IMG/VR virus record: IMGVR_UViG_3300032116_000032
Location: 64,001 to 128,000 of that record
Source: a virus
DNA length: 64,000 bases
Direction: 5' to 3' (one strand)
The notes under the pieces are model-generated. The model was not told the DNA's origin. It saw only the letters and a program-made list of their open reading frames with translations, and did no database searches. The position numbers and the translations under genes are program-made. This document shows, piece by piece, positions 11,836-36,612 of this stretch (the first letter of the stretch is position 1; each line of letters opens with the position of its first letter).

Positions 11836-14822
11836 TGGCCACACAGAAGTTTACTTGTCCACCTCAAAGTAGTGCCGCCAATGAATTCTCAAATAATTTG
11901 GTTGGAGTTCAGTTAGTCACTGGAGGAGGGTTAACGCAAGCAAATTTTAACTTCACAACAAACATATCCGAAAAACAGAATAGAACGTTTAATATTGGTA
12001 CGTTTTCAGATCCAATAAATCTTGAGAGTATAAATATTGATAATAATATTGAAGCCGCTGAGATTTTAGCTAACAACTATAGAGTTTACCCAAATTATGA
12101 TTTATCTCAAGTAACAAACTTTACCCAATATGGTTCTTTAGTAAAAAGATTTTCAGTTTCAATAACTAAGATAATCAACTTTTATCCTGCAGGATTAGAG
12201 GTTTCACCAAATACAAATAAGTTTATAACTCAAGAAACGGCATTTAATATAACTTACGATGCGGTAGAGGACGACACAACTTTCGAAGTTTCAGTATCAT
12301 CTATTAGAAATCCATTTGACATAGATTACACCGTTAATGCTGAAACTAATATGTTGTTTAATGAGATGGAAGTTTCACCTCTGAGGAATATGAAATTGGA
12401 GTATAAAAAATACGCCTTAGTTGTCAACGGCAATGAATATCCTGTAAATTATTTGTACCCTACGACAAGTAATTCATCTACATTAAAATTAATTGTTGAT
12501 GGAAACCCATTCAACGGGAATTCAATATCTTACGATTATATTGTTATAAGACCAAATAACTATGAAGTTAATAAAGTATTTAATCTGAAGTTTGATCCTG
12601 TTGAGAATTTTTTATTAAATAGAAATATTAATCCTCCATATACCGCAACTTTTACAGTACCAAGAGAACAAGAAGATGGAACATTTAAGATAACAACAGA
12701 ACTTGCCACATTCCCAAAATCAGGACTTTGGAACTTAGATATTGAATCACAAACATTTGATAACTACCTAACACAAATTAACGATTTTGCAATAAATCTT
12801 GATTCATATAACACGAATTTAGTTTCAAGATTTTTAACGACAGGTGCTCTGAAAGAGTTTGATACACCTGATCATAAATTTGAAAAACTTTTACAGATTT
12901 ATGGTAGAAGTTTTGACGAAACTAAAGCATTCATTTCGGCGTTAGGTAATATTAATAGTGTTCACTATACTGTTAAAAATGATATACCGTCACAACTTTT
13001 GAAAAATTTGGCACAAACATTAGGTTGGGTAACAAACTTTTCACCTATATCGAATGAAGAATTGTTACAGGCAGTTTTTACAACACAACCAAATACTTTT
13101 CCTGGTTTACAAATAGGACCAACGCCTGAGGAAATTAATTATCAATTTTACAGAAACTTAATTATAAATTCTGCGTGGTTATTTAAATCAAAAGGAACAA
13201 GAAAATCTATTGAGTGTCTCTTGAGGATGGTTGGAGCTCCTGAGGCTTTAATTGATTTTAACGAACACATTTATGTTGCTGATCAAAGAATTAACATGAG
13301 TGAGTTTAATAAACAGTACTTACAATTATCGGGAGGAACTTTCCTACAAGAATATCCTGTATTAGAAACTAACAACACATACTCAATACAAGGTATTCAG
13401 TACACTGGTTTTACAACAACATTTGCAAATGCAACAGTTTTAACTACAAGAGAAGATTATCCTGTTGATGAATTTGGATGTCCTAAAATGCCAACACCAA
13501 CGGAGGAATACTTTTTTCAAATTGGAGGAGGATGGTTCGAATCAACACCTCAACACAGGATGCCAGAATTTGTAATCCCAACAAATCAAGTATTCATAGG
13601 CGATAATCCTAATTTCCAAACTCAACTTTTACCTTTCAACTATGGAGAGGAATATCTACAACTGTACAGACATTTCCCATATATGAATTTGGGGTATAAG
13701 ATTAGAAAAGTCCAAGATAATAAGAAAAGTTGGAGTGATACCTCACCAACACAACGAGTAAGTTCAGATGGTGGATTTAATGCTTATTATGAAGTCGGTG
13801 AAGAATGTTTAACATTGAATGTAAAAAATGTTGACATTATGATGAATCCCGCACAAGGTTTGGTTTATGATGTTTGGACAATGTCTAGACAATATAATTA
13901 CCCAATACCTGAACAAGGTTTATTCTACACTCCTGACACACCTTGTAGTGTACCAAATCCTTACCCAAGATATGGTGGAATAGATTGGACAACAATTATC
14001 CCAAAACCAAAACAAAAAACTTTCTTTGAATTTGCTCAAACATTTTGGAGAAATATGGTTAACACTAGAAACCGACAATTTATTACCGATGGTAAAACTG
14101 GAGGTTACCCAACACTACAATCAATATATTGGAAATACTTAGAATCTCAGACACAAGCAGGAATACCAAATGATAATTTTACATACCAAACTATGATAGA
14201 TTATATTAATGGTATGGGTGACTATTGGATTAGAATGGTTGAACAAATGGTCCCTGCAACTACAATATGGAACACAGGAGTTAGATTAGAAAATTCAATA
14301 TTTCATAGACAAAAATTTGTATGGAGAAGACAAGAAGGCTGTAAAATCGTTCCTGTTCCTTGTAAACCTTGTTCTTTGGCAACACAATTATTTGTATACG
14401 ATTGCCCTGTACAACAAGTGGTTTGTGGACTTTATCCTTGGAATAGTGACCCTACAATAACATCTATGGGTGCAGTCTTGAATGATACTTTAGATACTTT
14501 TTATAGCCAAAATTCATTAAACCCAACCGATTGTTTACAGAATTCAATTGTAACAACTTGGAATGTAGATTTGAGGGTAAATGGATTTGTATTGGTAATA
14601 TCACCTTTCTACACAGGTATTGGACCATTCAATATCCCAACTAATTCAGAATGGGTTGACGCTTTGAGTAGTACATTAAATAATTTACTAACCTCAGGGT
14701 ATAGTTATAATATTGATGAGGATAACGAACAAATAACAGTCTTTAACAATAATTGTCAACCTAATTTTGATGACTTTCAAATAAACATAGGACTTGAGTT
14801 CGAAATATATTGTAACGAATAA
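11835..14822 (+). CDS. Baseplate wedge/tail protein (P2 gpI/T4 gp7-like core) with large extensions
   Basis: IPSQLLKNLAQTLGW...FYRNLIINSAWLFKSKGTRKSIECLLRMVG resembles the KGT motif of tail protein I-like wedge subunits. Confidence 0.6.
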   Translation: MATQKFTCPPQSSAANEFSNNLVGVQLVTGGGLTQANFNFTTNISEKQNRTFNIGTFSDPINLESINIDNNIEAAEILANNYRVYPNYDLSQVTNFTQYGSLVKRFSVSITKIINFYPAGLEVSPNTNKFITQETAFNITYDAVEDDTTFEVSVSSIRNPFDIDYTVNAETNMLFNEMEVSPLRNMKLEYKKYALVVNGNEYPVNYLYPTTSNSSTLKLIVDGNPFNGNSISYDYIVIRPNNYEVNKVFNLKFDPVENFLLNRNINPPYTATFTVPREQEDGTFKITTELATFPKSGLWNLDIESQTFDNYLTQINDFAINLDSYNTNLVSRFLTTGALKEFDTPDHKFEKLLQIYGRSFDETKAFISALGNINSVHYTVKNDIPSQLLKNLAQTLGWVTNFSPISNEELLQAVFTTQPNTFPGLQIGPTPEEINYQFYRNLIINSAWLFKSKGTRKSIECLLRMVGAPEALIDFNEHIYVADQRINMSEFNKQYLQLSGGTFLQEYPVLETNNTYSIQGIQYTGFTTTFANATVLTTREDYPVDEFGCPKMPTPTEEYFFQIGGGWFESTPQHRMPEFVIPTNQVFIGDNPNFQTQLLPFNYGEEYLQLYRHFPYMNLGYKIRKVQDNKKSWSDTSPTQRVSSDGGFNAYYEVGEECLTLNVKNVDIMMNPAQGLVYDVWTMSRQYNYPIPEQGLFYTPDTPCSVPNPYPRYGGIDWTTIIPKPKQKTFFEFAQTFWRNMVNTRNRQFITDGKTGGYPTLQSIYWKYLESQTQAGIPNDNFTYQTMIDYINGMGDYWIRMVEQMVPATTIWNTGVRLENSIFHRQKFVWRRQEGCKIVPVPCKPCSLATQLFVYDCPVQQVVCGLYPWNSDPTITSMGAVLNDTLDTFYSQNSLNPTDCLQNSIVTTWNVDLRVNGFVLVISPFYTGIGPFNIPTNSEWVDALSSTLNNLLTSGYSYNIDEDNEQITVFNNNCQPNFDDFQINIGLEFEIYCNE

Positions 14823-17020
14823 TGAGTATTTTAATTTATAATTATAGTGTAACGGGGGATTGTAGTAATACAGGTAGCGGTGCGGTTTCGTTTGATATAA
14901 CTGGAAGTACACCAACAGTATCTCCTTTTAGTATTTCAGATGCAACAGGTCAAGGATTATTACCACTTTCTGCAGCAACAAATACATACTCAGTAACTGG
15001 CCTTACAGGAGGCACATATTATGCTCAACTTACAGATTCTAGTACAGAAAAAGAAGTTTTAAACATTTATATTTCAACAGGCACTACAGCAACTATTGAT
15101 TCGTCCAATACCACTTGTGGACAGAATAATGGAACCATAACAGGTTTCACGTCTGGCGTCTATGGACTTGTTTCTTTTAATTTATATGATATAAGTAATA
15201 ATTTAATTTCAGGTGTAACAACATCTAATTCTTATTATGAATTCACATCTCTTTCGGCCGGTACATATTACATTGTTGCAAACGATGGTGGTGGATGTAC
15301 AGGAATAACCGCATCTGTAATATTAAATCCTTCATCAGGTTTAACATATGGTGCATATGTTGTTGATGATGCTAGTTGTTTAGGTTCAGGTAGTGGTAAA
15401 ATTTTCTTAACAGGGTTAACACCACCATTGTCGGCATACACAATAACTTGGAGTCCTAACGCTTTAGGGCAAACAGGATCAACAATAACAGGACTAACAT
15501 CTGGATCTTATGTTGCTACTGTTACTAATTCAGTAGGATGTACGTTAAGTCAGTCATTTACTGTAAACACTATTCCGCCATTAACATCAGGTGGTTTTAT
15601 TGTGGTATCACAACCTTCTTGTTTTGCCAATGATGGTGAAGTGGAGTTTATTGTTGTTGGTGGTACTGCACCATATTTTTTTAGTGGATCATCAGGTCAA
15701 GTTGAAATAACATTTGATACTTCCGTAACTTTTACGGGACTATCTTCAGGATTATACTCATTTTTTGTGACAGATTCAGGTTTATGTACAATTTATGATT
15801 CTGTAAGTTTAATAACACCAAACTCTTTTAGTACTGTTGCAGTAACAACAACTAACTCAACTTGTTCTGTAAATGATGGTAGTATTAATGTTTTAGTTGA
15901 TGGAGGACTTAGTACTGCAACCAACTTACAAATTTCGGTATCTGGAACAACAGGTATAAGTCAAATAGGATTGTTTGGTAGTTCTAATGAAACATTTAAT
16001 GGTCTCGGAAGTGGAACATATATAGTAACAGTTGTATCTGCAGGTTGTACCTATACCGCATCAACAGTAATAAATTCTGTTAGTTTATATAGTGCAACTA
16101 CTGAAGTAACCGGAACTACATGTGGATTGAATAATGGGATTCTTGTTGTAAGTGCGTCAACAGGAGGAACTTTCCCATACACATATTCATTAACAGGACC
16201 AAGTTACAACCCAAACACTACTACAAGCCAGTTCAACACGTTTACTAATTTAGCTAACGGAAATTACGTGTTAACAATACAAGATACCTCATCACCACCT
16301 TGTATACAAACATATGCGGTTAATATACCATATAGTCAAAGTGTAAACTTTAATCTATATCCAAACCAACCTGTAAATGGTAATGACGGATCTATAACTG
16401 CGTTTATCACAAGTGGTGAACCACCTTTCACTTTAACTTGGAGTGGAGGAACTATAGGACTTCAAACAGGAAGTACTGTTACAGGTCTTACTTCAGGTCC
16501 TTACAGTCTAACTGTAACTGATGCTAGTGGTTGTACACTAACAAAATACGCAACATTAACAGGTACTAAAAAATACACTAATTATTTATACTATAATGTT
16601 TGTGATAATACATTTACAGATAGTGGGTTAGTAACTAAAAGAACTATACGAGCAATGTATTTAGAAGGGTTCAATGACTTAACTAGTGGTGATACAAACT
16701 GTATTATAAATTCTGCAACTTTTACGATTGGTGCTGAAGTTGGTGGACAATCAGCAGAAACTATATTTTATACATCTTCTGGTTCTACAGATTACCCAAA
16801 TGATATACTATGGGCAGACGCAATATCGACAATACTTAACGACTTTGTTGGAATATCAGATGTTACTATAGACCTACCTTCAAATAGAATTATCATAAAA
16901 ACAAACTGCGAAGAAATCACTAAAAACTGTGGTCCACAAACAATAAATCCATTACAAGATACTGAAATAAAAGTCAACTTATTGATTGACTATGACATAT
17001 CTTGTGTAAGTTGTAGTTAA
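14822..17020 (+). CDS. SprB-repeat virion/adhesin-like protein (732 aa)
   Basis: Several units such as SQPSCFANDGEVEFIVVGGTAPYFFS, GTTCGLNNGILVVSASTGGTFPYTYSL and GNDGSITAFITSGEPPFTLTWSGG...GLTSGPYSLTVTDASGCT. Confidence 0.75.
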   Translation: MSILIYNYSVTGDCSNTGSGAVSFDITGSTPTVSPFSISDATGQGLLPLSAATNTYSVTGLTGGTYYAQLTDSSTEKEVLNIYISTGTTATIDSSNTTCGQNNGTITGFTSGVYGLVSFNLYDISNNLISGVTTSNSYYEFTSLSAGTYYIVANDGGGCTGITASVILNPSSGLTYGAYVVDDASCLGSGSGKIFLTGLTPPLSAYTITWSPNALGQTGSTITGLTSGSYVATVTNSVGCTLSQSFTVNTIPPLTSGGFIVVSQPSCFANDGEVEFIVVGGTAPYFFSGSSGQVEITFDTSVTFTGLSSGLYSFFVTDSGLCTIYDSVSLITPNSFSTVAVTTTNSTCSVNDGSINVLVDGGLSTATNLQISVSGTTGISQIGLFGSSNETFNGLGSGTYIVTVVSAGCTYTASTVINSVSLYSATTEVTGTTCGLNNGILVVSASTGGTFPYTYSLTGPSYNPNTTTSQFNTFTNLANGNYVLTIQDTSSPPCIQTYAVNIPYSQSVNFNLYPNQPVNGNDGSITAFITSGEPPFTLTWSGGTIGLQTGSTVTGLTSGPYSLTVTDASGCTLTKYATLTGTKKYTNYLYYNVCDNTFTDSGLVTKRTIRAMYLEGFNDLTSGDTNCIINSATFTIGAEVGGQSAETIFYTSSGSTDYPNDILWADAISTILNDFVGISDVTIDLPSNRIIIKTNCEEITKNCGPQTINPLQDTEIKVNLLIDYDISCVSCS

Positions 17021-17338: not shown

Positions 17339-20290
17339 ATGGCATTATTAACGGATCAAATACAAGCTACTGGAGTTTCTCTAACAGACTTAATTCACAT
17401 AGTAATAACTGGTGATACTTCTCAAAATCCTGCGGGATCATCTTTTAAAGCATCAATTTCTCAACTTGTTAGTTTAATTAGTGGTTCTACAGGAACAAAC
17501 GGTACATCAGGAACTAATGGAAGTAGTGGTACAAATGGAACTAACGGTACATCAGGAACTAATGGGTCTAGCGGTACTAATGGGTCTAGCGGTACTAATG
17601 GAACAAACGGTACTTCAGGAACAAATGGATCTAGCGGTACTAATGGAACAAACGGTACTTCAGGAACAAATGGATCTAGCGGTACTAATGGAACAAACGG
17701 TACTTCAGGAACAAATGGATCTAGCGGTACTAATGGAACAAACGGTACTTCAGGAACAAATGGATCTAGCGGTACAAATGGAACAAATGGATCTAGCGGT
17801 ACAAATGGAACTAATGGTACAAGCGGTCTAAGTGGTATTGGGTTATTTTTACCATTATCAGGGGGCACGGTTACGGGTAATACAATATTTAATGCCGGTT
17901 TAAGTGCGATAACAATATCGGCAACAACCTATCAAAACTTACCAAGTGATGTGATAATTATTGACTCAACACAGATTCAATCAGGATTTACAGGTGGAGT
18001 CTTGTTCCAAAGTTCAGCAAGTACGGTAAGTCAAACTACTGGATTTACTTGGGATAATGTAAATAAAAGGTTGGGAATTGGGACTAACACCCCTCTCTAT
18101 GACTTAGACGTTTATGGGTCTATCTATCAAAAAACCGGAGAATTATTAATTACATCCACAAGTGGTGTTAATAAAGAAGGTCCATTTATAGCATCAGACG
18201 GCGGAACTAACAGAACCATTCAATTAGGAATTTCAGACAATTCAACTGTACCTGTCGGCATTGATATGTTTGTAACTAACAATACATTCCCGCCAAGTTA
18301 CATGAACTTTAGAGTAAACGATGCTGATCTAGTTAGGATGTCTGGTAGTTCTGTTATAATTAGCGGTCTTACATATACAAGTGGTATAACCTCTACATCT
18401 AAAATAACATTTCCACAGCTGACAATTAATAGTTCATACACCATGACTGATAATGATTTTATGATTGATGTTACAGGAGGAACATTCAACGTACAATTAC
18501 TATCTGCCGTAGGAAGACAAGGAAGAATAGTTGTTATTAAAAATAATGGTGGAGGTGCAGTTACGGTAGTCCCTTATGGTAGTGAAACTATAGATCTAGC
18601 ACCATTTGTTATTTTAGGTGAAACAAACTCATTACAATTAGTAAGTAATGGTAGTTTTTGGGTTGCAATGTCTTATAATATCTCAACAGTAAACTCATCA
18701 ACAGGTGTTTTTGAATTTAGTGGTTTGACAAAGGCAAGTAATACCACATTTAATGTTGCCCCTGTTAAAGGTTGGATAGTTGATGATACAACTAATCCGT
18801 TGAGTCCCCAACTTTTATTTGTTTATTTTACTGGAGGAACGTATACTGATAGTTTTGTAACAACGGCTTTTGAGACATTTGTTTATTTAACAAGTGGTGC
18901 AACAATTGGACAACAATCAACACCACTAACTGAACAACAAAGAAGACAAAATATATTTTTAGGTAAAATAGGACACCCTGAAAAAGTTTCAATTAACTTA
19001 GTGTTTTCACAACCTGATTTTGTTTTATCACCATTATCTCAACTTCGTGATATGTTTGTACCTATTAATTTAATTAATGGGGGTGTATATCCATCAGCCA
19101 ACGGAGCAAACTTAAAATTCAACACAAGTGCCGGGTTTATATATGGATTAGGTATTAATTTTGCATCGAATACATTGAACCCAAATGCATTATCGATATC
19201 AGGAACAAGCCCTTGTACATTCCAATATAGAACACAAACAGGAGGAACGGTTACAAATGTTACAGATATTGACCCACTTAACTATGATGTTGGGGGTGTT
19301 ATAACTCCAATCACAGGTACTAAAGCCACAAACCAAAGAATTTACCTATTGCAAAATGGACAATTTAGAATTCAATATGGTCAAACCGAATATAACACTT
19401 TAGTACAGGCGATAGAAGCATTACAAACAGAAACATTCACAATATTCCCCAATTTTGTAAATAATGCCGTTCTTATTGGTATATTAACGGTGTTAAGTAC
19501 CGCAACGGATTTGACCGATACAACTAAAGCAAGATTCTTTTTTGCGTCTAAGTTTGGTGAAACTGTAGGTGCTACGGGGGGTGTGTCAACAACAAACCTA
19601 CAACAAGCTTATAATAACTCAGTACAACCTGAAATAACAACCAACTCAACTTTAGGTGCGTTCTCAATCAAAAATGGTACGGGTAATCCTGATGCCACCA
19701 CAAATTTATTTGAAGGAATTAATTCTGCAAATACTTTAACATCGGTAATCACTGCAAGAGGTACTATCACAGGGTCTAGTATTACTACAAATGGTGCTGT
19801 GACGGGAGCTACCGTAATTGGTGATGTTATATCGGGTAACACAGTGTCGGCCTCAACACTTAACCTTGCAGGATCACAAATAAATACTGCTTGGACATCT
19901 TATGTACCTGTTTTGACCGCAAGTGTAACTAATCCTGTAATTGGTAATGGAACCGTAGAAGGTTGGTATAAAATAGTTGGTAAAACATGTTTTGTGAGAG
20001 GAAATATTGTAATGGGATCAACAACAACATTTGGTGCAGGAGAATGGTATGTGTCAGTACCATTTACCGCGGCTCATGCTGATGCAATATTATTAAATGC
20101 TGACATATTAGATAATGGGACCGCTTGGTATAATGCATTTATAGCGGGTGCAAGAGCAGGATTTAATACCAAAGCGGCAATACAATATCAAAATACAGGA
20201 GGAACTACAGATAGTGTTTCACCAAGTACCCCATTTACTTGGACAACTGGTGATAGATTTTTATGGAATGGAAGTTATGAAATCGCATAG
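17339..20290 (+). CDS. Tail fibre/receptor-binding protein with Gly-X-X (GTN/GTS/GSS) repeat
   Basis: About 110 residues of GTNGTSGTNGSS repeats, then FLPLSGGTVTG, a RLGIGTNTP repeat and a C-terminal fibre-like domain (WTSYVPVLT...WYKIVGKTCFVRG). TATTTAT at 17324. Confidence 0.75.
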   Translation: MALLTDQIQATGVSLTDLIHIVITGDTSQNPAGSSFKASISQLVSLISGSTGTNGTSGTNGSSGTNGTNGTSGTNGSSGTNGSSGTNGTNGTSGTNGSSGTNGTNGTSGTNGSSGTNGTNGTSGTNGSSGTNGTNGTSGTNGSSGTNGTNGSSGTNGTNGTSGLSGIGLFLPLSGGTVTGNTIFNAGLSAITISATTYQNLPSDVIIIDSTQIQSGFTGGVLFQSSASTVSQTTGFTWDNVNKRLGIGTNTPLYDLDVYGSIYQKTGELLITSTSGVNKEGPFIASDGGTNRTIQLGISDNSTVPVGIDMFVTNNTFPPSYMNFRVNDADLVRMSGSSVIISGLTYTSGITSTSKITFPQLTINSSYTMTDNDFMIDVTGGTFNVQLLSAVGRQGRIVVIKNNGGGAVTVVPYGSETIDLAPFVILGETNSLQLVSNGSFWVAMSYNISTVNSSTGVFEFSGLTKASNTTFNVAPVKGWIVDDTTNPLSPQLLFVYFTGGTYTDSFVTTAFETFVYLTSGATIGQQSTPLTEQQRRQNIFLGKIGHPEKVSINLVFSQPDFVLSPLSQLRDMFVPINLINGGVYPSANGANLKFNTSAGFIYGLGINFASNTLNPNALSISGTSPCTFQYRTQTGGTVTNVTDIDPLNYDVGGVITPITGTKATNQRIYLLQNGQFRIQYGQTEYNTLVQAIEALQTETFTIFPNFVNNAVLIGILTVLSTATDLTDTTKARFFFASKFGETVGATGGVSTTNLQQAYNNSVQPEITTNSTLGAFSIKNGTGNPDATTNLFEGINSANTLTSVITARGTITGSSITTNGAVTGATVIGDVISGNTVSASTLNLAGSQINTAWTSYVPVLTASVTNPVIGNGTVEGWYKIVGKTCFVRGNIVMGSTTTFGAGEWYVSVPFTAAHADAILLNADILDNGTAWYNAFIAGARAGFNTKAAIQYQNTGGTTDSVSPSTPFTWTTGDRFLWNGSYEIA
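17483..17835 (+). repeat. In-frame Gly-X-X coding repeat, including four perfect 45-bp tandem copies (17591-17770)
   Basis: Unit GGTACTAATGGAACAAACGGTACTTCAGGAACAAATGGATCTAGC x4, flanked by degenerate 9/18/27-bp units. Confidence 0.95.
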
Positions 20291-20344
20291 ACTTTAAAAT
20301 TCAAAATTAATTCACTTTACCTTATTTTAATTTAATTTTCCTAT

Positions 20345-21325
20345 ATGGAAAATATGTTATTTGTTTCAGCACAACCCGATGTCCCCTACTTTATATGGCA
20401 AATAAAATTGTATGTTCATAATTTTATTGAAAAAGGAATCAACCCAAATCAAATACATGTTGTTTTAGGGTTAGTCAATAATGTAAACACACCATCTAAA
20501 GAATCAGAACAACTTAAAGAGTTAGGGGTTAATGTGCATTACTTTGTTGATCAAAGATCTAAAAAACATTATATACCAAGTATTAAACCATACCTCATCT
20601 CAAAGTGGATACAGTCAAATCCTGATTATGGAAAATTATTTTTCCTTCATGATGCTGACATTATTTTTAAAGAATTACCGAGTTTTGATCGGTTGTTAAA
20701 AGATGAGGTTAGTTATTTATCTGATACAATAGGATACATTGGATATAACTATATTATGGATTGTTGTGAAAGATATGAACAACAACACCCCAATTCAGAT
20801 AAAGGACAACTTATAAGTGAAATGGCAGATGTAATTGGTGTTGACGTTGAGACAATCAAAATTAATCAAGAAAATTCTGGTGGAGGACAATACCTAATCA
20901 AAAATACAAATTGTGAGTTATGGGATAAAATCTATAGAGACTCAACTACTATGTATGACAAGATGTTGGATTATCAAAAAAGATTCCCGATAAATCCAGG
21001 TCAAATACAATTTTGGACTGCTGAGATGTGGTCATTATTATGGAATTTATGGTTGTATAATATTGAAACTAAAGTTACAGAAGATCTTGATTTTTCTTGG
21101 GCAACGGATACCATAGAAACTTATGAAAAAAAACCAATACTTCATATGGCTGGTGTGACTGATAACCTAAGAGCTACAAAATTCTACAAAGGTGATTACA
21201 TTAATATAAACCCAATTTCTAAGTTGAGAGAAAACCCTAATCATTTTGATTACATAGATAAAGATAGTTCGACAATAAAATATATCGATAATATGAAATC
21301 TTATATTCAAAAATACAACATATGA
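20345..21325 (+). CDS. GT-A fold glycosyltransferase resembling peptidyl-Ser galactosyltransferase/hydroxyproline arabinosyltransferase (GT96/GT95-like)
   Basis: Motifs in order: PYFIWQ, YIPSIKPYLISKWIQ, FFLHDADIIF (DxD), GGGQYLI, FWTAEMWSL, PILHMAG. Confidence 0.65.
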   Translation: MENMLFVSAQPDVPYFIWQIKLYVHNFIEKGINPNQIHVVLGLVNNVNTPSKESEQLKELGVNVHYFVDQRSKKHYIPSIKPYLISKWIQSNPDYGKLFFLHDADIIFKELPSFDRLLKDEVSYLSDTIGYIGYNYIMDCCERYEQQHPNSDKGQLISEMADVIGVDVETIKINQENSGGGQYLIKNTNCELWDKIYRDSTTMYDKMLDYQKRFPINPGQIQFWTAEMWSLLWNLWLYNIETKVTEDLDFSWATDTIETYEKKPILHMAGVTDNLRATKFYKGDYININPISKLRENPNHFDYIDKDSSTIKYIDNMKSYIQKYNI

Positions 21326-21342
21326 TTATTTATTGTTAATAG

Positions 21343-23421
21343 ATGGTAGAAAATTGTTATATATTATATTCTTGCGACGGAAGTTACGAACCGATCATTT
21401 CAAACTTTAGTGGGTTGAGCGCTTATTCGGCATCATACATCTCTGTAAATTCGATAGATTCAGTAACAATAGAGGAGACTTGTTTTTATGTGTTAAGTTT
21501 AGGTGTGATAGACTGTACCATAACAAACGAAATAACAATTTCAACAGGGATAACATGCAATTGTCAATGTTATTGTTATTTTATAAGATCTGTGGTTCAA
21601 ACAACTGATGTTACATATGTTAATTGTAATGATGAAATTATTGTCGATACTATCCAAGAAGGATTAACTTATAATATTTGTAGTAAAGTTTATCCACAGT
21701 TTGATAATCAAGTACAAATCCCAATTAAATTAACTGACATTTGTGTTGATAACCAATGTCCACCAACAATCCCAACTGTAAAACCAACAAACGAATGTGA
21801 TGTTATTACTATATTCCCTATGGGAGTTACTTGTATAACACAACAACCTTCATCAGAAAGAAATTTTGACGGGGCGGTTGAATTAGTTGTAACAGGAGGA
21901 ACGCCACCTTATACTATATTTTGGGAAGTTGGAAGTTTTGCGCCAGCACTTACTAATCTTGGTGTTGGAGAATACTCAGCATCTGTTACGGATTATTATG
22001 GTGATTTCTCAGCATTTACAACTTGTGTTTTAACTGCTGAAACTATAAATTATTCAGGTATGTGTTTTGTATTAACAGGTGTAGTAGAGGATCAGTTAGT
22101 ATACATTAATTCAGAAGTAAAAGGGTTTAAAAATACCAAACCATACTTTGAAATACAATATGGTGTAAATCTTTTGGGTTACGTTTTTTGGGACCCAAGT
22201 TCGTCGAATAAATGGTTTTTTTGTCAAACATTAGATTGTCAATTATCACCATATAATACACTTATATTACCTGATGGATTATATCCTACAGGAACAACAG
22301 GTGATTGGCAAGTTGTTTCAGACACACCGTATTTAATTGTTGAATCAACAATTGGTAATTGTTCGCCACCAACAATACCTAAAGAACAGTTTCCTCTTTG
22401 TGCAACAATAGTTTTAAGATCGACAAAACCTGGTTCTGCAACAATCACATCACAGGTCCAACTTGACCCAAGTGTCGAAATAAATGGAGAACCTAGTTGG
22501 TCATCATCAACAGATCAATATGTTGTATATTGGAATAGCGGATCAACACCTGCTCAGTGGGTTATGACAGGGTTTACTAACCCATCAACATTGGTTTCAA
22601 ATAATGATCCTTCATATCCGCCTGTAAGTAATTGGCAGGTTTATGGTTCACCTGAAGTTTATAGTGTTGATATTACACAAGGTGAATGTTCAGAATCATA
22701 CATTGTATTAGCGTCTGCAATTGTAAATGATGCTCTATGTGGAGACAATGGTAATATTACCGTAAGTGCTTCGGGAGGAGATGCACCATATCAATATTCA
22801 ATAGACGGAGGAATATCATATCAACCATCACCAATATTTAGTAATGTTTTACCAGGAACTTACAGTGTATTTGTAAAAGACGTAAACACAACAATAGGTT
22901 CGTTTGGACCAGTGGTAGTTAATAACATACCAACCACCATTTATAATGTAACAATGAATGTAAATTACAATAATAATACTTTTACGTTAACCGCACCATC
23001 GTTACCTGTTGGAGCTACCTTAACAGTGGACGTGGTTATGTCATCAGTATTCAATTATTACCCACAAAGTTTAAGTCCAATACCTACATATAATAATTTT
23101 ACAACTATTAATGGTGTAGGTCTTATGACAAACATTAATACGACAGCTAATACATATCCTTTAGGTGGACCTTGTAGTGTTCCTGGACCATTGAATAATA
23201 CTCAAATTAGTAATACGTATTTAAACACAATAACATTAACAAGCGGTCAAGTTGTTACAGGTAGTACTACAAATAGTATTATTAATGCTCCTGTTACATC
23301 TTGCTCAAATGCTTTAGGGTATTATACACTATCCATAGCTAATGCAATGATAAACAACTGTCAATGTTGTGATGCGAATCTAATTAATACGGTTCCACCA
23401 GCACCACAATCAGTTTTATAA
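21343..23421 (+). CDS. Cys-rich SprB-repeat virion protein (692 aa)
   Basis: DGAVELVVTGGTPPYTIFW...LGVGEYSASVTD and CGDNGNITVSASGGDAPYQYSIDGG...VLPGTYSVFVKD; many Cys; TATTTAT at 21327. Confidence 0.7.
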   Translation: MVENCYILYSCDGSYEPIISNFSGLSAYSASYISVNSIDSVTIEETCFYVLSLGVIDCTITNEITISTGITCNCQCYCYFIRSVVQTTDVTYVNCNDEIIVDTIQEGLTYNICSKVYPQFDNQVQIPIKLTDICVDNQCPPTIPTVKPTNECDVITIFPMGVTCITQQPSSERNFDGAVELVVTGGTPPYTIFWEVGSFAPALTNLGVGEYSASVTDYYGDFSAFTTCVLTAETINYSGMCFVLTGVVEDQLVYINSEVKGFKNTKPYFEIQYGVNLLGYVFWDPSSSNKWFFCQTLDCQLSPYNTLILPDGLYPTGTTGDWQVVSDTPYLIVESTIGNCSPPTIPKEQFPLCATIVLRSTKPGSATITSQVQLDPSVEINGEPSWSSSTDQYVVYWNSGSTPAQWVMTGFTNPSTLVSNNDPSYPPVSNWQVYGSPEVYSVDITQGECSESYIVLASAIVNDALCGDNGNITVSASGGDAPYQYSIDGGISYQPSPIFSNVLPGTYSVFVKDVNTTIGSFGPVVVNNIPTTIYNVTMNVNYNNNTFTLTAPSLPVGATLTVDVVMSSVFNYYPQSLSPIPTYNNFTTINGVGLMTNINTTANTYPLGGPCSVPGPLNNTQISNTYLNTITLTSGQVVTGSTTNSIINAPVTSCSNALGYYTLSIANAMINNCQCCDANLINTVPPAPQSVL

Positions 23422-23447
23422 ATTGAATATAAGAATATTTACAATAA

Positions 23448-25952
23448 ATGGCTTACATAATTAAAAATACATCTGGTTTAGTTAACACTCGTGTAACGGA
23501 TACAGGTAGACAAAAAATGTCTGAAGGTAATTTTAATATCTTGTACTTTGCAGTAGGGGATAGTGAAGTTTCATACAATGAATTACCATCAACATACAAT
23601 CAGGCTAATACTGTTGTATTAGAGCCACAGTTCAATGCGCAGAATAGTTCAGGTGTTCCTGAGTCAAATAGACAGTACATCAAATATCCATATTTAGTTG
23701 ATGAGGGACAAACAAACATATATGGTATTCCTTTTATGGATTCAGGTATTGAATCTGTTTATAATAGAGCAGCCATGAGAGGATTTTTCACAGGAAATAC
23801 AACAGCGTCTACTATAGATTGGAAAGCATTAGTTAACAACACATATGTTATCACACCAAATTATGTAGTTAATATGTCTACGTTGAACGGAACAAATCAA
23901 ATAAGTGTACAAAGAATGGACTGTAACGTTCAAAATAATAATACACCTAATGTTGGAGATTTTATAACAATATATTACGATGGAAGGGCAGAAACTGATT
24001 GTTCTTGTACTAATTTCCCTACACCAACACCTACACCTTCATTGTATAGTACACCAACACCTACACCAACACCAACAGGTACAAATTCAATACCATGTGC
24101 TTCACCAACACCAACACCTTCACCAACGCATACACCATGTTTAACACCAACACCAAGTGCTCAATGTCCCGTACCACCACCACCTGATTGTTTGAAAGAT
24201 GTGGTAAGTTGTTTTTCAATTTTAACTTATAGAATTGTTGAAGTTTGTGGTGATGTTTTAACGTTAGATAGAGAGACACCTGATTTTACAAATTTATCTA
24301 TTGATTGTTGGGCGAGAACATTAATTTATCCACCACAGATGGTTCCTTTGTATGATAGTTTTACACCTGAACCACATTGGAGTAAAAGTGTGATTGACTT
24401 CGAATCGGTTTGTGATACTGATCAGTTTGATGTTAAAATATGGAATATGAACATTCCTTGGACTGAGAGTCCTGCTGGTTTAGCGTCGGCTCAATTTCAA
24501 GACTATACAAAATTTGGTTCTATTAATTATATAGGACAAAAAGAATATTTTGGATACACTTCATCTGATGGTCAAACATCTACGGACGATGTGTATTACT
24601 ACAATTCTTTTGGTGAAAAAATTGTAGTTACACCTGAAGAACAAAAAACTATAGCAATTATACACTATACTAACCAAACCATTGATTTCTTCTATGGTGA
24701 AAAATTTGCATTAGAACCATACGACACTCAAAACCCTGAGAACACCCAAGGTCAAGCAAGAAATTTCAAGTTACATATGCCAACAATAATGTGGCATAAA
24801 AATCCTGAATGTTGTTTTGGACAAACGTTTTGGGTTGATCCTCCTGGATTTGACAATCAAAATTTATTTCAAGTTCAATATACTAAATCTAAGATTTCAC
24901 AACAAATGAATCAACCTGGACTTAGGTATTATAATCTTTGGGATACATTTGCACAACCTAATGGTCAACCAAGTAGAGTAGGTAAAGTTTACCCCGATTC
25001 AAAACTAATTGTTATTGACGACGAAGAATTGGTGGCCGCTCTATCATATAAATCAAATAGAAACTGGACATTACCGGCACCACAAGTGTCTTTAATAACA
25101 CCAAACACGTGTGGAACTTCAAATACTACAGGTGTTTTGACAGGAGGAGGAGAAACACTTTGGGTGACTTATAGATTATCAAATTCAAACACATTTACAA
25201 ATTCATTACATAGTAATTACTACACAAGTGTCGTTGGAACTGAAAATGTCTGTTCACCTGAAACACCAAAGAATGTTGCAATTAGATTTGGTGGAGATTT
25301 CCCATGTTTAGTACAACCTGGATTCTCACCAACAACTACAACCACAACATTTAATCCTGTAACCACATCAACAACTACAATTAATCCACCATATACAACA
25401 ACTACAACAACTCAGTGTCCTGTATGTACTGTTCCTGCTGGATTCTACGCACAACAGTTCCAAGTATTGGCTCAAAAAACATTATCGGGAGTAAGACCTG
25501 ATCCGGCACAATGGAGGTTAATTGATTTTACAAGTCAAATTGAACAATACTTCATTAATGGTTATGTAACGCAAGAATCTTTAACTGCAACTACTTTTGT
25601 TGTGACTGCAGAAAATTATGGAAGTGCACCTATATACAATCTAAACAATTACATAAGTTTAGTTCCTAATGGTGCTACAGGACAACAATTAAATTTTGGT
25701 GATGAATACTATTTCTACGGTAATTTAGAAACCGACATTCAAGCAACATTGTATGAGATGAAATATAAAATTAACTTAAGTGATAATGAATTCTTACTCT
25801 CTCAAAACCCAACTTGGACCCAAGGAACACCATCTTATGTTACAGAAATCGCTCTTTTAGATGAAAATAAAGATGTTTTAGTTATGTCTAAAATGCAATC
25901 ACCTATCTTAAGACAAGGAATTCAACAGTACGTTATCAAATTAGATTTCTAA
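23448..25952 (+). CDS. Tail collar/fibre-attachment protein (DUF3751/P2 gpH N-terminal-like) with PT and poly-Thr linkers
   Basis: N-terminal VTDTGRQKMSEGNFNILYFAVGDSEV and C-terminal VTEIALLDENKDVLVMSKMQSPI; TATTTAC upstream. Confidence 0.55.
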   Translation: MAYIIKNTSGLVNTRVTDTGRQKMSEGNFNILYFAVGDSEVSYNELPSTYNQANTVVLEPQFNAQNSSGVPESNRQYIKYPYLVDEGQTNIYGIPFMDSGIESVYNRAAMRGFFTGNTTASTIDWKALVNNTYVITPNYVVNMSTLNGTNQISVQRMDCNVQNNNTPNVGDFITIYYDGRAETDCSCTNFPTPTPTPSLYSTPTPTPTPTGTNSIPCASPTPTPSPTHTPCLTPTPSAQCPVPPPPDCLKDVVSCFSILTYRIVEVCGDVLTLDRETPDFTNLSIDCWARTLIYPPQMVPLYDSFTPEPHWSKSVIDFESVCDTDQFDVKIWNMNIPWTESPAGLASAQFQDYTKFGSINYIGQKEYFGYTSSDGQTSTDDVYYYNSFGEKIVVTPEEQKTIAIIHYTNQTIDFFYGEKFALEPYDTQNPENTQGQARNFKLHMPTIMWHKNPECCFGQTFWVDPPGFDNQNLFQVQYTKSKISQQMNQPGLRYYNLWDTFAQPNGQPSRVGKVYPDSKLIVIDDEELVAALSYKSNRNWTLPAPQVSLITPNTCGTSNTTGVLTGGGETLWVTYRLSNSNTFTNSLHSNYYTSVVGTENVCSPETPKNVAIRFGGDFPCLVQPGFSPTTTTTTFNPVTTSTTTINPPYTTTTTTQCPVCTVPAGFYAQQFQVLAQKTLSGVRPDPAQWRLIDFTSQIEQYFINGYVTQESLTATTFVVTAENYGSAPIYNLNNYISLVPNGATGQQLNFGDEYYFYGNLETDIQATLYEMKYKINLSDNEFLLSQNPTWTQGTPSYVTEIALLDENKDVLVMSKMQSPILRQGIQQYVIKLDF
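24018..24186 (+). repeat. Pro-Thr coding repeat (mucin/extensin-like linker)
   Basis: PTPTPTPSLYSTPTPTPTPT...PTPTPSPTHTP...PVPPPP. Confidence 0.9.
25331..25412 (+). repeat. Poly-Thr coding tract
   Basis: TTTTTTFNPVTTSTTTINPPYTTTTTT. Confidence 0.9.
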
Positions 25953-26006
25953 TAAAACTACAATTTTTATCTTCATAGTTTATAATATAAATAAAATAAT
26001 AGTTTT

Positions 26007-26615
26007 ATGGCAAAAAATTTAAAAAACTCCCCCAAAGTTTTGGGTCTTGATATTTCCACAAAAACCATAGGGTGGGCATTGTTTGATATTAAAACACAAG
26101 AATTACTTGAATTAACTCACATCTCACCAAGACCAAAAATGGAAAAAGATGAGGATGATAAATTAAAAGAATTATTGTTGAAATCAGAAATATTTGCCGA
26201 AAAACTTAAACAATATAAAGATTTAGGAATTGTTAGAATTATCATAGAAGAACCACTTTTGAATTCTAATAACATTTATACAATACAAACACTATTAAGA
26301 TTTAATAGTTTTGTGTTTAAAGAAATCTATAATATAATGGGAATTGTTCCTGAATTTATTTCAACTTACAACTCAAGAAAATTTGCATTCCCAGATTTAG
26401 TTCAAGAAAACGATAAGAAAAAATTTGTATTATTTGGTGGATTACCAAAAGACGTGGATAAGAAAATGATCATTTGGGAAAAAGTTGCAAAAAGAGAACC
26501 CCAAATTACATGGCATTATACAAAAAACAATACATTAAAGAAAGAAAATTTTGATCAAACAGACGCCTATACTTGTGTTTTAGGATTTATGAGATCAAAA
26601 GAAATTTGGAAATAA
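26007..26615 (+). CDS. RuvC-like Holliday junction resolvase (RNase H fold)
   Basis: VLGLDISTKTIGWALFD, IIIEEP and FDQTDAY give the D-E-D-D catalytic pattern. Confidence 0.75.
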   Translation: MAKNLKNSPKVLGLDISTKTIGWALFDIKTQELLELTHISPRPKMEKDEDDKLKELLLKSEIFAEKLKQYKDLGIVRIIIEEPLLNSNNIYTIQTLLRFNSFVFKEIYNIMGIVPEFISTYNSRKFAFPDLVQENDKKKFVLFGGLPKDVDKKMIIWEKVAKREPQITWHYTKNNTLKKENFDQTDAYTCVLGFMRSKEIWK

Positions 26616-26640
26616 TATCTTTTATATAACCGATAATTTG

Positions 26641-26670
26641 AAATATCGTCTTTTTAGACGATATTTTTTT
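26641..26670. terminator. Bidirectional intrinsic terminator between convergent genes
   Basis: AAATATCGTCT-TTT-AGACGATATTT hairpin followed by a T run. Confidence 0.65.
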
Positions 26671-26673
26671 TTA

Positions 26674-27927
26674 TTAACAAATTGCGCCTGTATCTGTAGC
26701 GGTAAAGTTAGGTGAAGTTGACGTTGGAATTGTAATTGAACAAACGTAAACGGATGTATAACCGTTTAATCCACCTGTAGATACTGTTCCATCACACTCG
26801 TAGTAGTCATATTTAACAAAACTTGGACTATTATTCTCAACGTACCATCTTGTAAGGATACAAGGAGGTAAAGTTGTAGTTGTGGTTGTAGTACTTGTTG
26901 ATGTTGTGGTCGTAGTTGGTTGTATATTAGAAAAACAAGCTAAACAAGAACCATCAACTCTTGAACCTATTTCAGTTAATAATACAACTGTGTCAACCCC
27001 ACTTATGTTTTCAAACAAACCTTCAAATGTAACACAAGTTTGTTGACCGTTAATTTCTGCAAAATATACGTAATTTTCTAAAGGAGTATTTCCTGAAATT
27101 AAAACTAAATCTGAAGTATAATAATCTACACCATTGAAACAATCACTAAATCTTTTACTATTAGCACATTGAATTACTTCAGTAAACGTATTGAATATAA
27201 CTTCGCCTGAAAAATTACAAGGATAGTTAATAGTTGTTGTGGTAGTCGTTGTTGGTGCTATTGTGGTTGTAGTTGTGGTATATGTGACCGCAATAGCCGT
27301 AATTGACTTTCCACTACAAGGATTAGGAAGTACTGTTGTCGTAGTAGTCGTTGTGGGGGCTGCTGTAGTTGTTGTAGTTGTTGTAGGAACTAAACAATCA
27401 AAAATGGCGCTAAAATCAAATGTAGCACATGGATCCACAGTTGTGGTTGTTGTTACACAAATTCCGGTATACGCTACCGTGTCGTCAAAATCAGGACAAT
27501 CTGATGTGCTTCCAAAAGGACCAAACTGATCACATGGGTCACCTAAGTTTTGTGCTAAACACCATCTTGTTTCACCTGTTGAATAAAACATGAAATATCC
27601 GGTGGTTTGACCTGTAAAATAAGATTCACCATCGTAAATTCCTGCTAACTGATAAGTGTCATCATAATTAGTGTCGTTTTCAACACAAAAAAACTGAGGA
27701 CAAGTACAACCTGAACTACCAATAATTGTACCTGAACCATCTATATCATATACATCTATACCATCTGAATAGTATGATAGTAATGCTGGACTACTACATA
27801 TTGAGTCTAAATAAACAATGTCACCTACAGTTAAACCACTACCATAAAGAGTAAAACTCAAAGTAGATCCACAGGAACTGTTAGGGTCTGAGGCGGATGA
27901 AAATAAACCTAAATTATTACAAGACAT
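26674..27927 (-). CDS. Cys-rich, poly-Thr (mucin-like) putative virion decoration/fibre protein
   Basis: Cys-paired modules separated by four poly-Thr tracts; co-transcribed with 27929-28150. Confidence 0.65.
   Translation of the reverse strand: MSCNNLGLFSSASDPNSSCGSTLSFTLYGSGLTVGDIVYLDSICSSPALLSYYSDGIDVYDIDGSGTIIGSSGCTCPQFFCVENDTNYDDTYQLAGIYDGESYFTGQTTGYFMFYSTGETRWCLAQNLGDPCDQFGPFGSTSDCPDFDDTVAYTGICVTTTTTVDPCATFDFSAIFDCLVPTTTTTTTAAPTTTTTTTVLPNPCSGKSITAIAVTYTTTTTTIAPTTTTTTTINYPCNFSGEVIFNTFTEVIQCANSKRFSDCFNGVDYYTSDLVLISGNTPLENYVYFAEINGQQTCVTFEGLFENISGVDTVVLLTEIGSRVDGSCLACFSNIQPTTTTTSTSTTTTTTTLPPCILTRWYVENNSPSFVKYDYYECDGTVSTGGLNGYTSVYVCSITIPTSTSPNFTATDTGAIC
26872..27455 (-). repeat. Cluster of poly-Thr coding tracts
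   Basis: TTTTT, PTTTTTTTAAPTTTTTTT, TTTTTTIAPTTTTTTT, PTTTTTSTSTTTTTTT. Confidence 0.9.
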
Positions 27928-32525: not shown

Positions 32526-32843
32526 ATGGGAAAAGCGGCAAAAGAACACAGAAAGAAAGTTGCAAAACGAAATGCAAAAATTAAACAAGAAAAGGCTGGC
32601 ATGCAAAAAGCTTTTGATATGTTACTACAACAACAATTGGAAAAATTGAAAAATGATGAAATGACTGCAATGGTGGGAGATCAAGAAGTTAAAATGGAAT
32701 TAGTTGAAGATAAAATAGTTGACCATGCATTCAAGTTCACTCCTAATGAAGAGGAGTCTGCAAAAATCAACAAAGAATTTGAACCTGAATATGATAGTGC
32801 GGGATATACAATCGAAGATAGAGAGTTACCAACAGAAGAATAA
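32526..32843 (+). CDS. Hypothetical protein
   Basis: ORF in operon; basic N-terminus, acidic C-terminus. Confidence 0.55.
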   Translation: MGKAAKEHRKKVAKRNAKIKQEKAGMQKAFDMLLQQQLEKLKNDEMTAMVGDQEVKMELVEDKIVDHAFKFTPNEEESAKINKEFEPEYDSAGYTIEDRELPTEE

Positions 32844-32845
32844 AA

Positions 32846-35218: not shown

Positions 35219-35248
35219 AATTTTTAAAACTAATTAGAATTTTATCAG

Positions 35249-35256
35249 TATATTTG
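35249..35256 (+). promoter_or_regulatory. Bacteroidota -7 element upstream of the operon containing the sigma factor
   Basis: TATATTTG equals TAnnTTTG; no clear -33 TTG. Confidence 0.5.
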
Positions 35257-35277
35257 TAGAACAATTAAAACACACAA

Positions 35278-35802
35278 ATGAACTACTTACTTTTTGTATA
35301 TTATAATTCTGAAGTAGAAAATTCAGAAGAAAAAACACAAGAAATCGGAACACAACTTGCAGAACATATGACTAGTGGTCAGGTTAAATTTATGTATGGA
35401 GATCGACATGCAATCTTCCATTTTGGATGTAAAAGTGATTTTAAAGATGTTGCTGATGTAGTATTCTTTATTTCCGAAGAAATACCGGGATTTGAATATC
35501 TTTTAACAAAAAAAGGTAGAGACCACAGTTCAAACTTTGATGAAGACAACCTTGAGCACTTAATGTCGTTAAAGAACACCACACCGAAGAAACATAAACC
35601 AGCGGCACCAAAATTAAGAACAAAAAATCTTGGTGATGGTGAAACGTTTTTGGATATTGCAGATCTTATTTTAAATCTAAAAAGAAAAGAAGTTTGTAAT
35701 ATGACTTTGGACGAACTATTAGATAAAATTAGTACTCAAGGTATGAATTCATTATCTGAAGTTGAAAAACAAAAGTTAGACGAATACTCAAAATCACTTT
35801 AA
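35278..35802 (+). CDS. Hypothetical protein with a C-terminal DUF6576-like helical motif
   Basis: LDELLDKISTQGMNSLSEVEKQKLDEYSK; TATATTTG upstream. Confidence 0.5.
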   Translation: MNYLLFVYYNSEVENSEEKTQEIGTQLAEHMTSGQVKFMYGDRHAIFHFGCKSDFKDVADVVFFISEEIPGFEYLLTKKGRDHSSNFDEDNLEHLMSLKNTTPKKHKPAAPKLRTKNLGDGETFLDIADLILNLKRKEVCNMTLDELLDKISTQGMNSLSEVEKQKLDEYSKSL

Positions 35803-35811
35803 CAAACATAT

Positions 35812-36612
35812 ATGAAAGACAAAAACACAGGGGCACCTATCAATCAGGATGAGATTTATCACTACCTTAAAGATATTAGAAAAATTAAGGTAATGACTGC
35901 AGAACGCGAACGTCATTTAGCCACACGAATGAAGTCGAATGATCTTACCTTGATTGAAAAACAACAAATTGAGGAAGAACTTTTAACAGGAAACCTACGT
36001 TTTGTAATAACAGTTGCAAAACAATATCAAAATCAAGGTTTAGATTTGTCAGATCTTATTGCAGAAGGTAATTTTGGTTTGATGAAAGCAATCAAGAACT
36101 TTGATTGGAATAAAGACTTACGTTTTATATCTTATGCTGTTTGGTGGGTTAAACAATCCATAATCCAATCTTTGAACGATAATTCGAGAACGATCCGTCT
36201 ACCGGTAAACGTTGTCCAAGACTTACAAAAGGCTAAAAAGGAATTAGAGCAAACAGGAAAAAAACTTGACGACAAGTTCCAAACTTTACCATCTATCATA
36301 GATTTGGATATGAATATCAATGAAGACGGTGATACTTTGATTGATATGATTGAGAATAAAGACGCTGTAGCACCTGACGCTAGTTTTCACACAAAAGACA
36401 TATTAAAAGATAAGTTAATGAGACTTTTAGATGTTTTGGATGAAAGAGAAAAAGTCATTGTAGGTGATTACTTTGGTTTAACAGGAACACCAAGAACATT
36501 GGAAGATATTGGATCTGACTTTGGTTTAACAAAAGAACGTGTTCGTCAAATTAAAGAAAAAGCTCTTCGTAGACTTAGAAATGATTCTTCCGAATTATTT
36601 GATTATTTATAG
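35812..36612 (+). CDS. RNA polymerase sigma-70 family factor, Bacteroidota primary-sigma-like
   Basis: Region 1.2 YLKDIRK; region 2 NLRFVITVAKQYQNQG...DLIAEGNFGL...RFISYAVWWVKQSI; region 4 TLEDIG...LTKERVRQIKEKALRRLR. Confidence 0.92.
   Translation: MKDKNTGAPINQDEIYHYLKDIRKIKVMTAERERHLATRMKSNDLTLIEKQQIEEELLTGNLRFVITVAKQYQNQGLDLSDLIAEGNFGLMKAIKNFDWNKDLRFISYAVWWVKQSIIQSLNDNSRTIRLPVNVVQDLQKAKKELEQTGKKLDDKFQTLPSIIDLDMNINEDGDTLIDMIENKDAVAPDASFHTKDILKDKLMRLLDVLDEREKVIVGDYFGLTGTPRTLEDIGSDFGLTKERVRQIKEKALRRLRNDSSELFDYL

Follow-up and report, generated by a model that had tools for sequence, protein, structure and literature searches.

To our knowledge, phage virion glycosylation has been shown experimentally only in a few mycobacteriophages. 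The O-glycosylation of the virions of mycobacteriophages Che8, Corndog, and Myrna was reportedly described by Freeman et al. in 2023 (Cell Host Microbe; summarised in PMC12619734); in this system, the subunits of the capsid and tail tube are modified in the cytoplasm by glycosyltransferases (GTs) that the phage encodes, and the glycans are carried on C-terminal extensions. The present analysis concerns P0001, a soluble GT-A fold glycosyltransferase of 326 residues belonging to family phrog_4417, which is encoded on the plus strand at positions 20345–21325 of a 64,000-nucleotide stretch of viral DNA, referred to here as the window. The window comprises bases 64001–128000 of the 136-kb IMG/VR viral record IMGVR_UViG_3300032116_000032 (CheckV completeness 46%), and positions are given in window coordinates unless the record is named. 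P0001 is probably a cytoplasmic O-glycosyltransferase for the threonine (Thr)-rich tracts of virion proteins, as judged from gene comparisons and a predicted structure, and it is the comparative genomic evidence that carries this functional claim. The glycosylated fibres and capsids of giant viruses (Mimivirus collagen-like fibres, PBCV-1 A64R) are more remote, as these viruses are eukaryotic, rely on N- or hydroxylysine-linked chemistry, and possess large glycan gene sets, and their similarity to P0001 is at the level of the fold only.

As in the mycobacteriophages, the GT gene is found within or next to structural genes, lying between baseplate and fibre genes in the window and directly after capsid or tail-tube genes in homologous loci, and Ser/Thr-rich virion segments co-vary with it. 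The small Firmicutes phages with P0001 homologs share the mycobacteriophage logic in bearing C-terminal poly-Thr tags on capsid and tail proteins. The differences are that the hosts are Bacillota and Bacteroidota, that the enzyme belongs to another GT family (phrog_4417, with no Pfam assignment), and that the tag is near-pure poly-Thr or Pro-Thr (PT) repeats, with the tracts of the jumbo phage forming internal loops or linkers of sheath and fibre-region proteins. Phage virion glycosylation is known in kind, but the GT family and the poly-Thr tag differ from the mycobacteriophage type.

Homologs of P0001 with 32–37% identity occur in 77 isolated phage genomes, among which ten carriers from distinct lineages were examined, with hosts in Enterococcus, Clostridium, Lactobacillus, Lacticaseibacillus, Staphylococcus, Arcanobacterium, Lactococcus, and Chryseobacterium. 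In all ten, a capsid, tail-tube, or other nearby protein encoded within approximately 4 kb of the GT gene carries a run of 5 to 41 Thr residues. In eight phages, such a run forms the extreme C-terminal end of the major capsid protein, of the major tail or tail-tube protein, or of both, as exemplified by the phiFL1A tags '...GETTTTTKPTTTTTKPTTTTTTTQG' and '...NGTTTTTSTTTTTTSSTTTTTTTQASSK'; Staphylococcus phage PT94 has its run in a small GT-adjacent protein, 17 residues short of the stop, and in Chryseobacterium phage MA9V-3 the Thr runs are internal. The GT gene directly follows the tagged gene in phiFL1A, phiCTP1, Bacchae, 4995_1, R3.3, PT94, and 1706. In contrast, none of five GT-less relatives (three Streptococcus prophages, Lactobacillus phiJL-1, and ATCC8014) bears a poly-Thr tag, although the orthologous tail proteins are 47–60% identical; their capsid and tail proteins can be aligned as far as the shared final motifs, where they end, and a chaperone gene lies directly 3' of the tail gene. 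Runs of five or more Ser or Thr residues are absent across 28–36 kb in three of these five phages, and in the other two the only such runs are short, mix Ser with Thr, and fall in the genes for the tape-measure protein, hyaluronidase, and primase. The contrast is also seen within a single genus, Coetzeevirus, in which R3.3 has both the GT and the tags, whereas phiJL-1 and ATCC8014 have neither. A preliminary description of this DNA had proposed that a phage GT glycosylates the Thr/Pro tracts of its own virion in the cytoplasm and that the presence of the GT would track Thr-rich proteins among relatives; the latter is borne out by these counts, and the former is strongly supported by the comparative genomics as a whole.

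At the level of the protein itself, P0001 carries the motifs PYFIWQ (residues 14–19), YIPSIKPYLISKWIQ (residues 76–90), DADII (residues 103–107), and WTAEMW (residues 224–229). Searches of Pfam, NCBIfam, and PDB sequences with both the single sequence and a 49-sequence profile gave no useful match, and no Pfam match was found at E ≤ 1. The only family match is phrog_4417 (E 1.8e-67; residues 4–319 against profile positions 1–290 of 293), which is annotated as of unknown function, and an exhaustive HMMER search yielded 839 cluster representatives at 50% identity for the P0001 family. The AlphaFold (AF2) model, built on a 49-sequence alignment with a predicted local distance difference test score (pLDDT) of 97.4 and a predicted template modelling score (pTM) of 0.94, consists of a single Rossmann-like α/β/α GT-A domain. 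The nearest solved structures are the same by Foldseek and by an aligner independent of it, with match scores of 15.8 for glycogenin, 14.5 for LgtC, 14.3 for the Skp1 α-galactosyltransferase AgtA, 14.1 for WbbM, 14.0 for the UGGT catalytic domain, 13.1 for GlyE, and, lower in the list, 10.9 for PBCV-1 A64R. The best solved matches are all GT-A glycosyltransferases, and several act on proteins or protein-linked glycans, namely glycogenin, Skp1 AgtA, UGGT, GlyE (serine-rich-repeat adhesins), and the capsid GT A64R; retaining enzymes of the GT8/GT24/GT77 type are the closest folds to the predicted structure. In the model, the DxD motif D103-A-D105 follows the strand formed by residues 98–101. Among 49 relatives, Asp105 is invariant and Asp103 is kept in 90% or more; in a set of 150 relatives, at least 90% keep both; and His267, Lys282, and G179-G180-x-Q182 are invariant or nearly so among both the 49 and the 150 diverse relatives. 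The arrangement of D103xD105 with His267 presumably mirrors the DxD-plus-histidine metal site of GT8 enzymes, in which case His267 would be equivalent to the C-terminal metal-ligand histidine. As P0001 contains no hydrophobic segment, and neither transmembrane nor signal sequences, the enzyme is expected to be soluble and cytoplasmic.

The same fold bears on whether P0001 modifies DNA. The α- and β-glucosyltransferases of phage T4 are GT-B enzymes with two domains, encoded among genes of DNA metabolism, whereas P0001 is a single GT-A domain in a structural gene context, and a DNA glucosyltransferase of the T4 type was rejected. More generally, a DNA-modifying GT that acts on hydroxymethylated bases for restriction evasion is extremely improbable here: phage GTs are classically known for glucosylating DNA (PMC12619734), and the cluster holds a nuclease, the RuvC-like P0006, but all of the fold matches are GT-A enzymes that transfer sugars to proteins or to glycans, the gene resides in structural and not in replication modules and co-varies with protein tags, and the domains to which P0001-type domains are fused are glycan-building GTs and lectin-like domains.

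The relationship of P0001 to described GT families is distant. Although its fold is GT8-like, P0001 fails the Pfam Glyco_transf_8 profile, and the same profile (PF01501, GT8) finds no match in its own genome; sequence identity to the GT8, GT24, and GT77 enzymes (glycogenin, LgtC, and GlyE; UGGT; AgtA) is just 7–13%, the TM-scores against their structures are only 0.4–0.5, and P0001 is approximately 70 residues longer than GT8-type enzymes, with extra helices. The preliminary description had labelled the enzyme GT96/GT95-like, on a presumed resemblance between its motifs and those of these families. The plant and algal enzymes HPAT (GT95) and SGT1/SERGT1 (GT96) are DxD-containing and of the GT-A type, like P0001, and glycosylate Ser/hydroxyproline-rich extensin-like repeats, which is functionally the same idea as the glycosylation of PT and poly-Thr tracts. 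PF23452, the HPAT model, is the only Pfam family that matches members of the phage family even weakly, at E 0.09 in two of 49 P0001 relatives, and HPAT-labelled members are present in 19 of the 30 nearest named ESM-Atlas clusters (a share of about 10% in the entry shown). The model was blank for P0001; it was also blank for its own genome, five other carrier phage genomes, and ten further family members, and these are weak negatives because the controls were blank as well. With PF23452 blank for P0001 and the closest folds being of the GT8/GT24/GT77 type, the family label is not established, and the GT95/GT96 link is a weak, unproven lead; the motifs themselves, like the Ser/Thr/Pro tracts reported for the cluster, are all in place, and the best structural matches are protein- and glycan-acting GTs, not DNA-modifying GTs or non-GT folds.

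Since near-identical homologs of P0001 are found on contigs of 274–318 kb rated 93–100% complete, the window is placed, by sequence comparison, within an abundant aquatic jumbo-phage lineage, which includes at least 594 IMG/VR contigs. No isolated phage was matched in a megablast search with the entire region. SprB repeats (Pfam PF13573), which are repeats of the gliding adhesin of Flavobacteriia, occur in two tail-region proteins (14822–17020 and 21343–23421), and this supports Bacteroidota as the probable host. The general O-glycosylation system of Bacteroidota is periplasmic, and a phage-encoded cytoplasmic enzyme would therefore be necessary for modifying the virion. Each of three complete relatives has seven or eight Glycos_transf_2 (GT2) matches, four or five of them above the curated cut-off, and there are none in the 46%-complete record that holds the window; the complete phage genome probably has more genes for building glycans. 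The lineage may belong to the recently named 'moraphages' (PMC12619734).

It is well established that phage-encoded GTs can remodel the surface glycans of the host, as noted for temperate phages (PMC12619734), and some carriers of P0001 homologs, such as phiFL1A, are temperate. P0001 could accordingly be imagined to act on a target outside the virion, either a host protein or an envelope glycan such as wall teichoic acid or a polysaccharide, modified so as to exclude superinfecting phages; its location in the structural module would then be incidental, and GT8-type enzymes such as LgtC do act on lipooligosaccharide. Nevertheless, in many phages that are unrelated to one another, the gene lies in a late structural operon directly 3' of a capsid or tail gene with a tag; its gain and loss are coupled to the gain and loss of poly-Thr tags on orthologous proteins; P0001 has no membrane segment; and the family is kept in lytic jumbo phages, all of which makes a host target very unlikely.

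The candidate acceptors of P0001 lie in the surrounding cluster. The best candidate in the window is P0004 (23448–25952, plus strand), an 834-residue conserved protein of the virion module with two Cys-flanked Thr/Pro loops. The first (24000–24190; residues 185–245) holds PT repeats at residues 191–227, starting from nucleotide 24018, and the second (25290–25440; residues 615–665) holds poly-Thr at residues 627–655, starting from nucleotide 25326; the loops are bracketed by the conserved Cys pairs DCSC...CP.PPP and FPCL...CP.C. P0005 (26674–27927, minus strand), a Cys-rich multi-domain protein, is another candidate acceptor, with five poly-Thr linkers within residues 181–352 and a shorter PTSTSP stretch at residues 401–406; its homologs are variable, and 2–16 Ser/Thr/Pro (STP) tracts are present in most related loci. 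Directly 5' of the GT gene, in a hypervariable slot, lies P0002 (17339–20290, plus strand), a collagen-like tail fibre that falls into PHROG tail-fibre families, matches Pfam Collagen at E 3e-16, and contains 40 unbroken G-X-Y triplets (residues 49–168, nucleotides 17483–17842; GTN x22, GSS x8, GTS x7); it is a further candidate acceptor. The variable slot 3' of the GT gene is occupied by P0003 (21343–23421, plus strand), a Cys-rich protein with SprB repeats (Pfam SprB, E 5e-12), whose homologs in relatives are 25–92% identical and mostly bear tracts of six or more Ser, Thr, or Pro residues. The conserved 5' neighbour is a second SprB-repeat tail-region protein (14822–17020, plus strand; Pfam SprB, E 2e-13) with 29% Ser plus Thr, which is kept in the lineage, often with STP tracts, and a baseplate-J-like gene and large structural open reading frames (ORFs) are located 5' of the region.

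Such tracts exceed chance expectation in the whole 136-kb record. Against composition-preserving shuffles of all 134 ORFs of the record, 11 runs of five or more Thr residues were observed where the shuffles gave 0.47 (maximum 3), and five repeats of (PT)3 or longer were observed where they gave 0.01. The Thr/Pro tracts that had been noted earlier near the GT are real, but the tracts are not confined to this cluster, as they also occur in the tail sheath and at least three other proteins 18–45 kb upstream of the window. The tail sheath (record positions 32573–35923, 28–31 kb upstream of the window; 1116 residues; phrog_23, E 8e-54) carries PT tracts at residues 299–327 of an N-terminal extension, which adds candidate acceptor tracts on a major tail protein exposed at the surface.

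Across 80 related loci, the gene order is fixed: a 995-residue protein, the SprB protein, a 98-residue protein, a variable fibre, the GT, a variable SprB-like protein, the P0004 ortholog, RuvC, and the reverse-strand poly-Thr protein. In 57 distinct P0004 orthologs, both loops are found at fixed positions and are rich in Ser, Thr, and Pro, whereas their sequence is not conserved; PT and poly-Thr interchange, the lengths range over 10–264 and 14–286 residues, and some orthologs have acidic mini-domains inserted in the loops, flanked by more PT or poly-Thr. These alignments indicate that selection acts on the composition of the loops and not on their sequence. The slot directly 5' of the GT gene is occupied in different loci by unrelated proteins of 170–1724 residues or, often, by Cys-rich multi-domain proteins with many poly-Thr linkers, and looks like a receptor-binding-protein exchange cassette. 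As a collagen run is present in this slot in only about eight of the 80 loci, the collagen-like fibre was rejected as a conserved partner of the GT.

The association between the GT and the Thr/Pro tracts could also arise if the tracts were plain flexible linkers or tags, the enzyme had accompanied them by hitch-hiking on mobile modules, and P0001 had some other soluble acceptor. Jumbo relative L078, which has lost both P0004 loops and keeps the GT, speaks for such a reading, but it has another poly-Thr protein directly 3' of the GT. A blind sample of IMG/VR contigs, picked solely by an (ACN)9 run, gave 118 loci, 92 of which have a run of at least eight Thr residues in an open frame. A GT-family gene was found in nine loci, with the poly-Thr ORF immediately 5' on the same strand in nine out of nine. 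The presence of tags in all ten GT carriers examined and in none of the five GT-less relatives, with the same adjacency recurring across distant hosts and three virion architectures, renders the linker explanation highly improbable. Several points nonetheless weigh against a role of P0001 in tract glycosylation. In 83 of the 92 poly-Thr loci of the blind sample, there is no GT-family gene within the short locus fetched, which also favours the linker explanation and means that poly-Thr is not exclusive to the P0001-type enzyme, at least in cis. Proteins associated with Bacteroidota commonly contain Thr/Pro-rich linkers, which can be pure spacers. The tracts of the jumbo phage form internal loops instead of C-terminal tags, and the acceptor rules may differ from those of the Firmicutes cases; co-occurrence within the jumbo lineage represents one inherited synteny block, not many independent events, and the positive and negative sets of isolated phages are small (10 and 5) and counted without phylogenetic correction. 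The shared fold leaves the type of acceptor unfixed. The searchable literature yielded neither biochemical or proteomic evidence for the P0001 family nor a publication dealing with it or with poly-Thr tags on the capsid or tail proteins of phages.

A second GT in the same genome raises the question of which enzyme touches the peptide. At record positions 14814–16058, approximately 49 kb upstream of the window and 69 kb upstream of P0001, lies a gene matching the PF11397 'GlcNAc' (N-acetylglucosamine) glycosyltransferase family (E 1.2e-60), which is also present in three complete relatives of 274–318 kb at E ~1e-60. This gene lies directly 3' of P0280 (record positions 13431–14765), a paralog of the collagen-like fibre P0002, so that the order of a collagen-like fibre followed by a GT occurs twice in the genome. 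We take PF11397 to correspond to GT60, a family of polypeptide and hydroxyproline GlcNAc transferases; GT60 enzymes such as Dictyostelium Gnt1 and pp-α-GlcNAcT initiate O-glycans on Thr-rich or hydroxyproline sites, and although P0001 itself falls outside GT60, this phage genome also has a gene for a member of that family, and fusions of such domains with P0001-type domains occur. Among 150 cluster representatives of the P0001 family, 83 have at least 400 residues, most of them being fused forms. The recognisable partners, including those from a Pfam tally of 73 sequences, were PF11397 (three times), Glyco_transf_7C (seven), GT2 (two), GT6 (two), and GT25, a GT1-like domain, and protein O-fucosyltransferase (O-FucT) once each, together with F5/8-type-C sugar-binding domains, one radical-SAM domain, and one methyltransferase; by these domain assignments, the partners of the P0001 domain are almost all other glycosyltransferases.

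The polypeptide α-GlcNAc transferases of Dictyostelium and trypanosomes place the first GlcNAc on Thr, and in the jumbo phage the GT60-like PF11397 enzyme might do the same, leaving P0001 to elongate. The occurrence of PF11397 in this genome and in the three complete relatives, the three fusions of P0001-type domains with PF11397, and the fact that many of the top fold matches (LgtC, AgtA, UGGT, and GlyE) extend existing glycans are in favour of such a division of labour. It is unlikely, however, given that five small tag-bearing phages with P0001 homologs contain no PF11397 or GT2 gene and that the P0001 type is the partner tightly linked to the tags. Because the P0001-type enzyme is the only recognised phage GT in those five genomes, it is the best candidate for the peptide-touching step, and their gene content suggests that it may suffice as the phage-encoded step.

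Other features of the cluster stand apart from glycosylation. P0006 (26007–26615, plus strand; phrog_159 and phrog_827), a RuvC-like Holliday-junction resolvase with 65–100% identity across related loci, sits between P0004 and the reverse-strand poly-Thr gene and is a conserved neighbour outside the glycosylation logic. The sequence TATTTAT occurs within 35 nucleotides 5' of 14 of the 69 ORFs of the window, where approximately one would be expected from its overall density by our own estimate; the start-proximal copies lie 5–19 nucleotides upstream of ORF starts (for example, at 1528, 10904, 17324, 21327, 36787, 41001, and 47546), and with 50 copies against 43 expected there is no overall enrichment in the window. 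It may be a phage late promoter or a translation-initiation element. The preliminary description had singled out P0001 for lacking this motif between genes that carry it, and the motif is indeed absent before P0001 and present 8–9 nucleotides 5' of P0002 and P0003, but this is not distinctive, as P0004 also lacks it; with 55 of the 69 ORFs devoid of the motif, its absence before P0001 was rejected as meaningful.

With respect to mechanism, P0001 would act as a metal-dependent (Mn/Mg), probably retaining GT-A enzyme that takes a nucleotide sugar in the cytoplasm and transfers the sugar to the hydroxyls of Thr residues in poly-Thr or PT tracts, and possibly in G-T-N collagen triplets, before or during virion assembly. 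In the jumbo phage, the likely acceptors would be exposed linkers and loops in P0004 and P0005, in the variable fibres on either side of the GT gene, and in the tail sheath, while in the small Firmicutes phages the same enzyme family would act on the short poly-Thr tags at the C-termini of tail-tube and major capsid proteins. Elongation of the glycan may then fall to other phage GTs, and the PF11397 GT60-like enzyme would cooperate in this process. We infer protein Thr as the acceptor, P0001 as the initiator, the retaining chemistry, and the cooperation of PF11397 from the evidence described above. On a broader view, for which the chances appear about even, phrog_4417 and the poly-Thr/PT tracts would constitute a portable module of a glyco-tag plus its cognate transferase, spread across tailed phages of Bacillota and Bacteroidota, in which gain of the enzyme is paired with tagging of the capsid, tail-tube, sheath, or fibre; in the present phage, the module and the GT60-like GlcNAc transferase would together cover the tail and fibres with mucin-like brushes of glycan, and the module may also glycosylate Thr in the proline-free G-T-N collagen triple helices.

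Candidate roles of the glycans may include shielding, stiffening, protease protection, and adhesion. If the proposal is true, virion glycosylation would extend to many phages of lactic acid bacteria, enterococci, staphylococci, clostridia, and aquatic Bacteroidota, the abundant jumbo-phage lineage among them, and the combination of a poly-Thr tag with a P0001-type GT would provide a rule, readable from sequence, that predicts glycosylated virion proteins. Such a rule would bear on the immunogenicity and stability of phages in therapy and dairy, and on their adhesion to mucus or polysaccharide, and could yield a genetically encodable cytoplasmic O-glycosylation tag for biotechnology. For a large family of 'hypothetical proteins', a function is hereby proposed, and the hypothesis is testable on phages that are already in culture.

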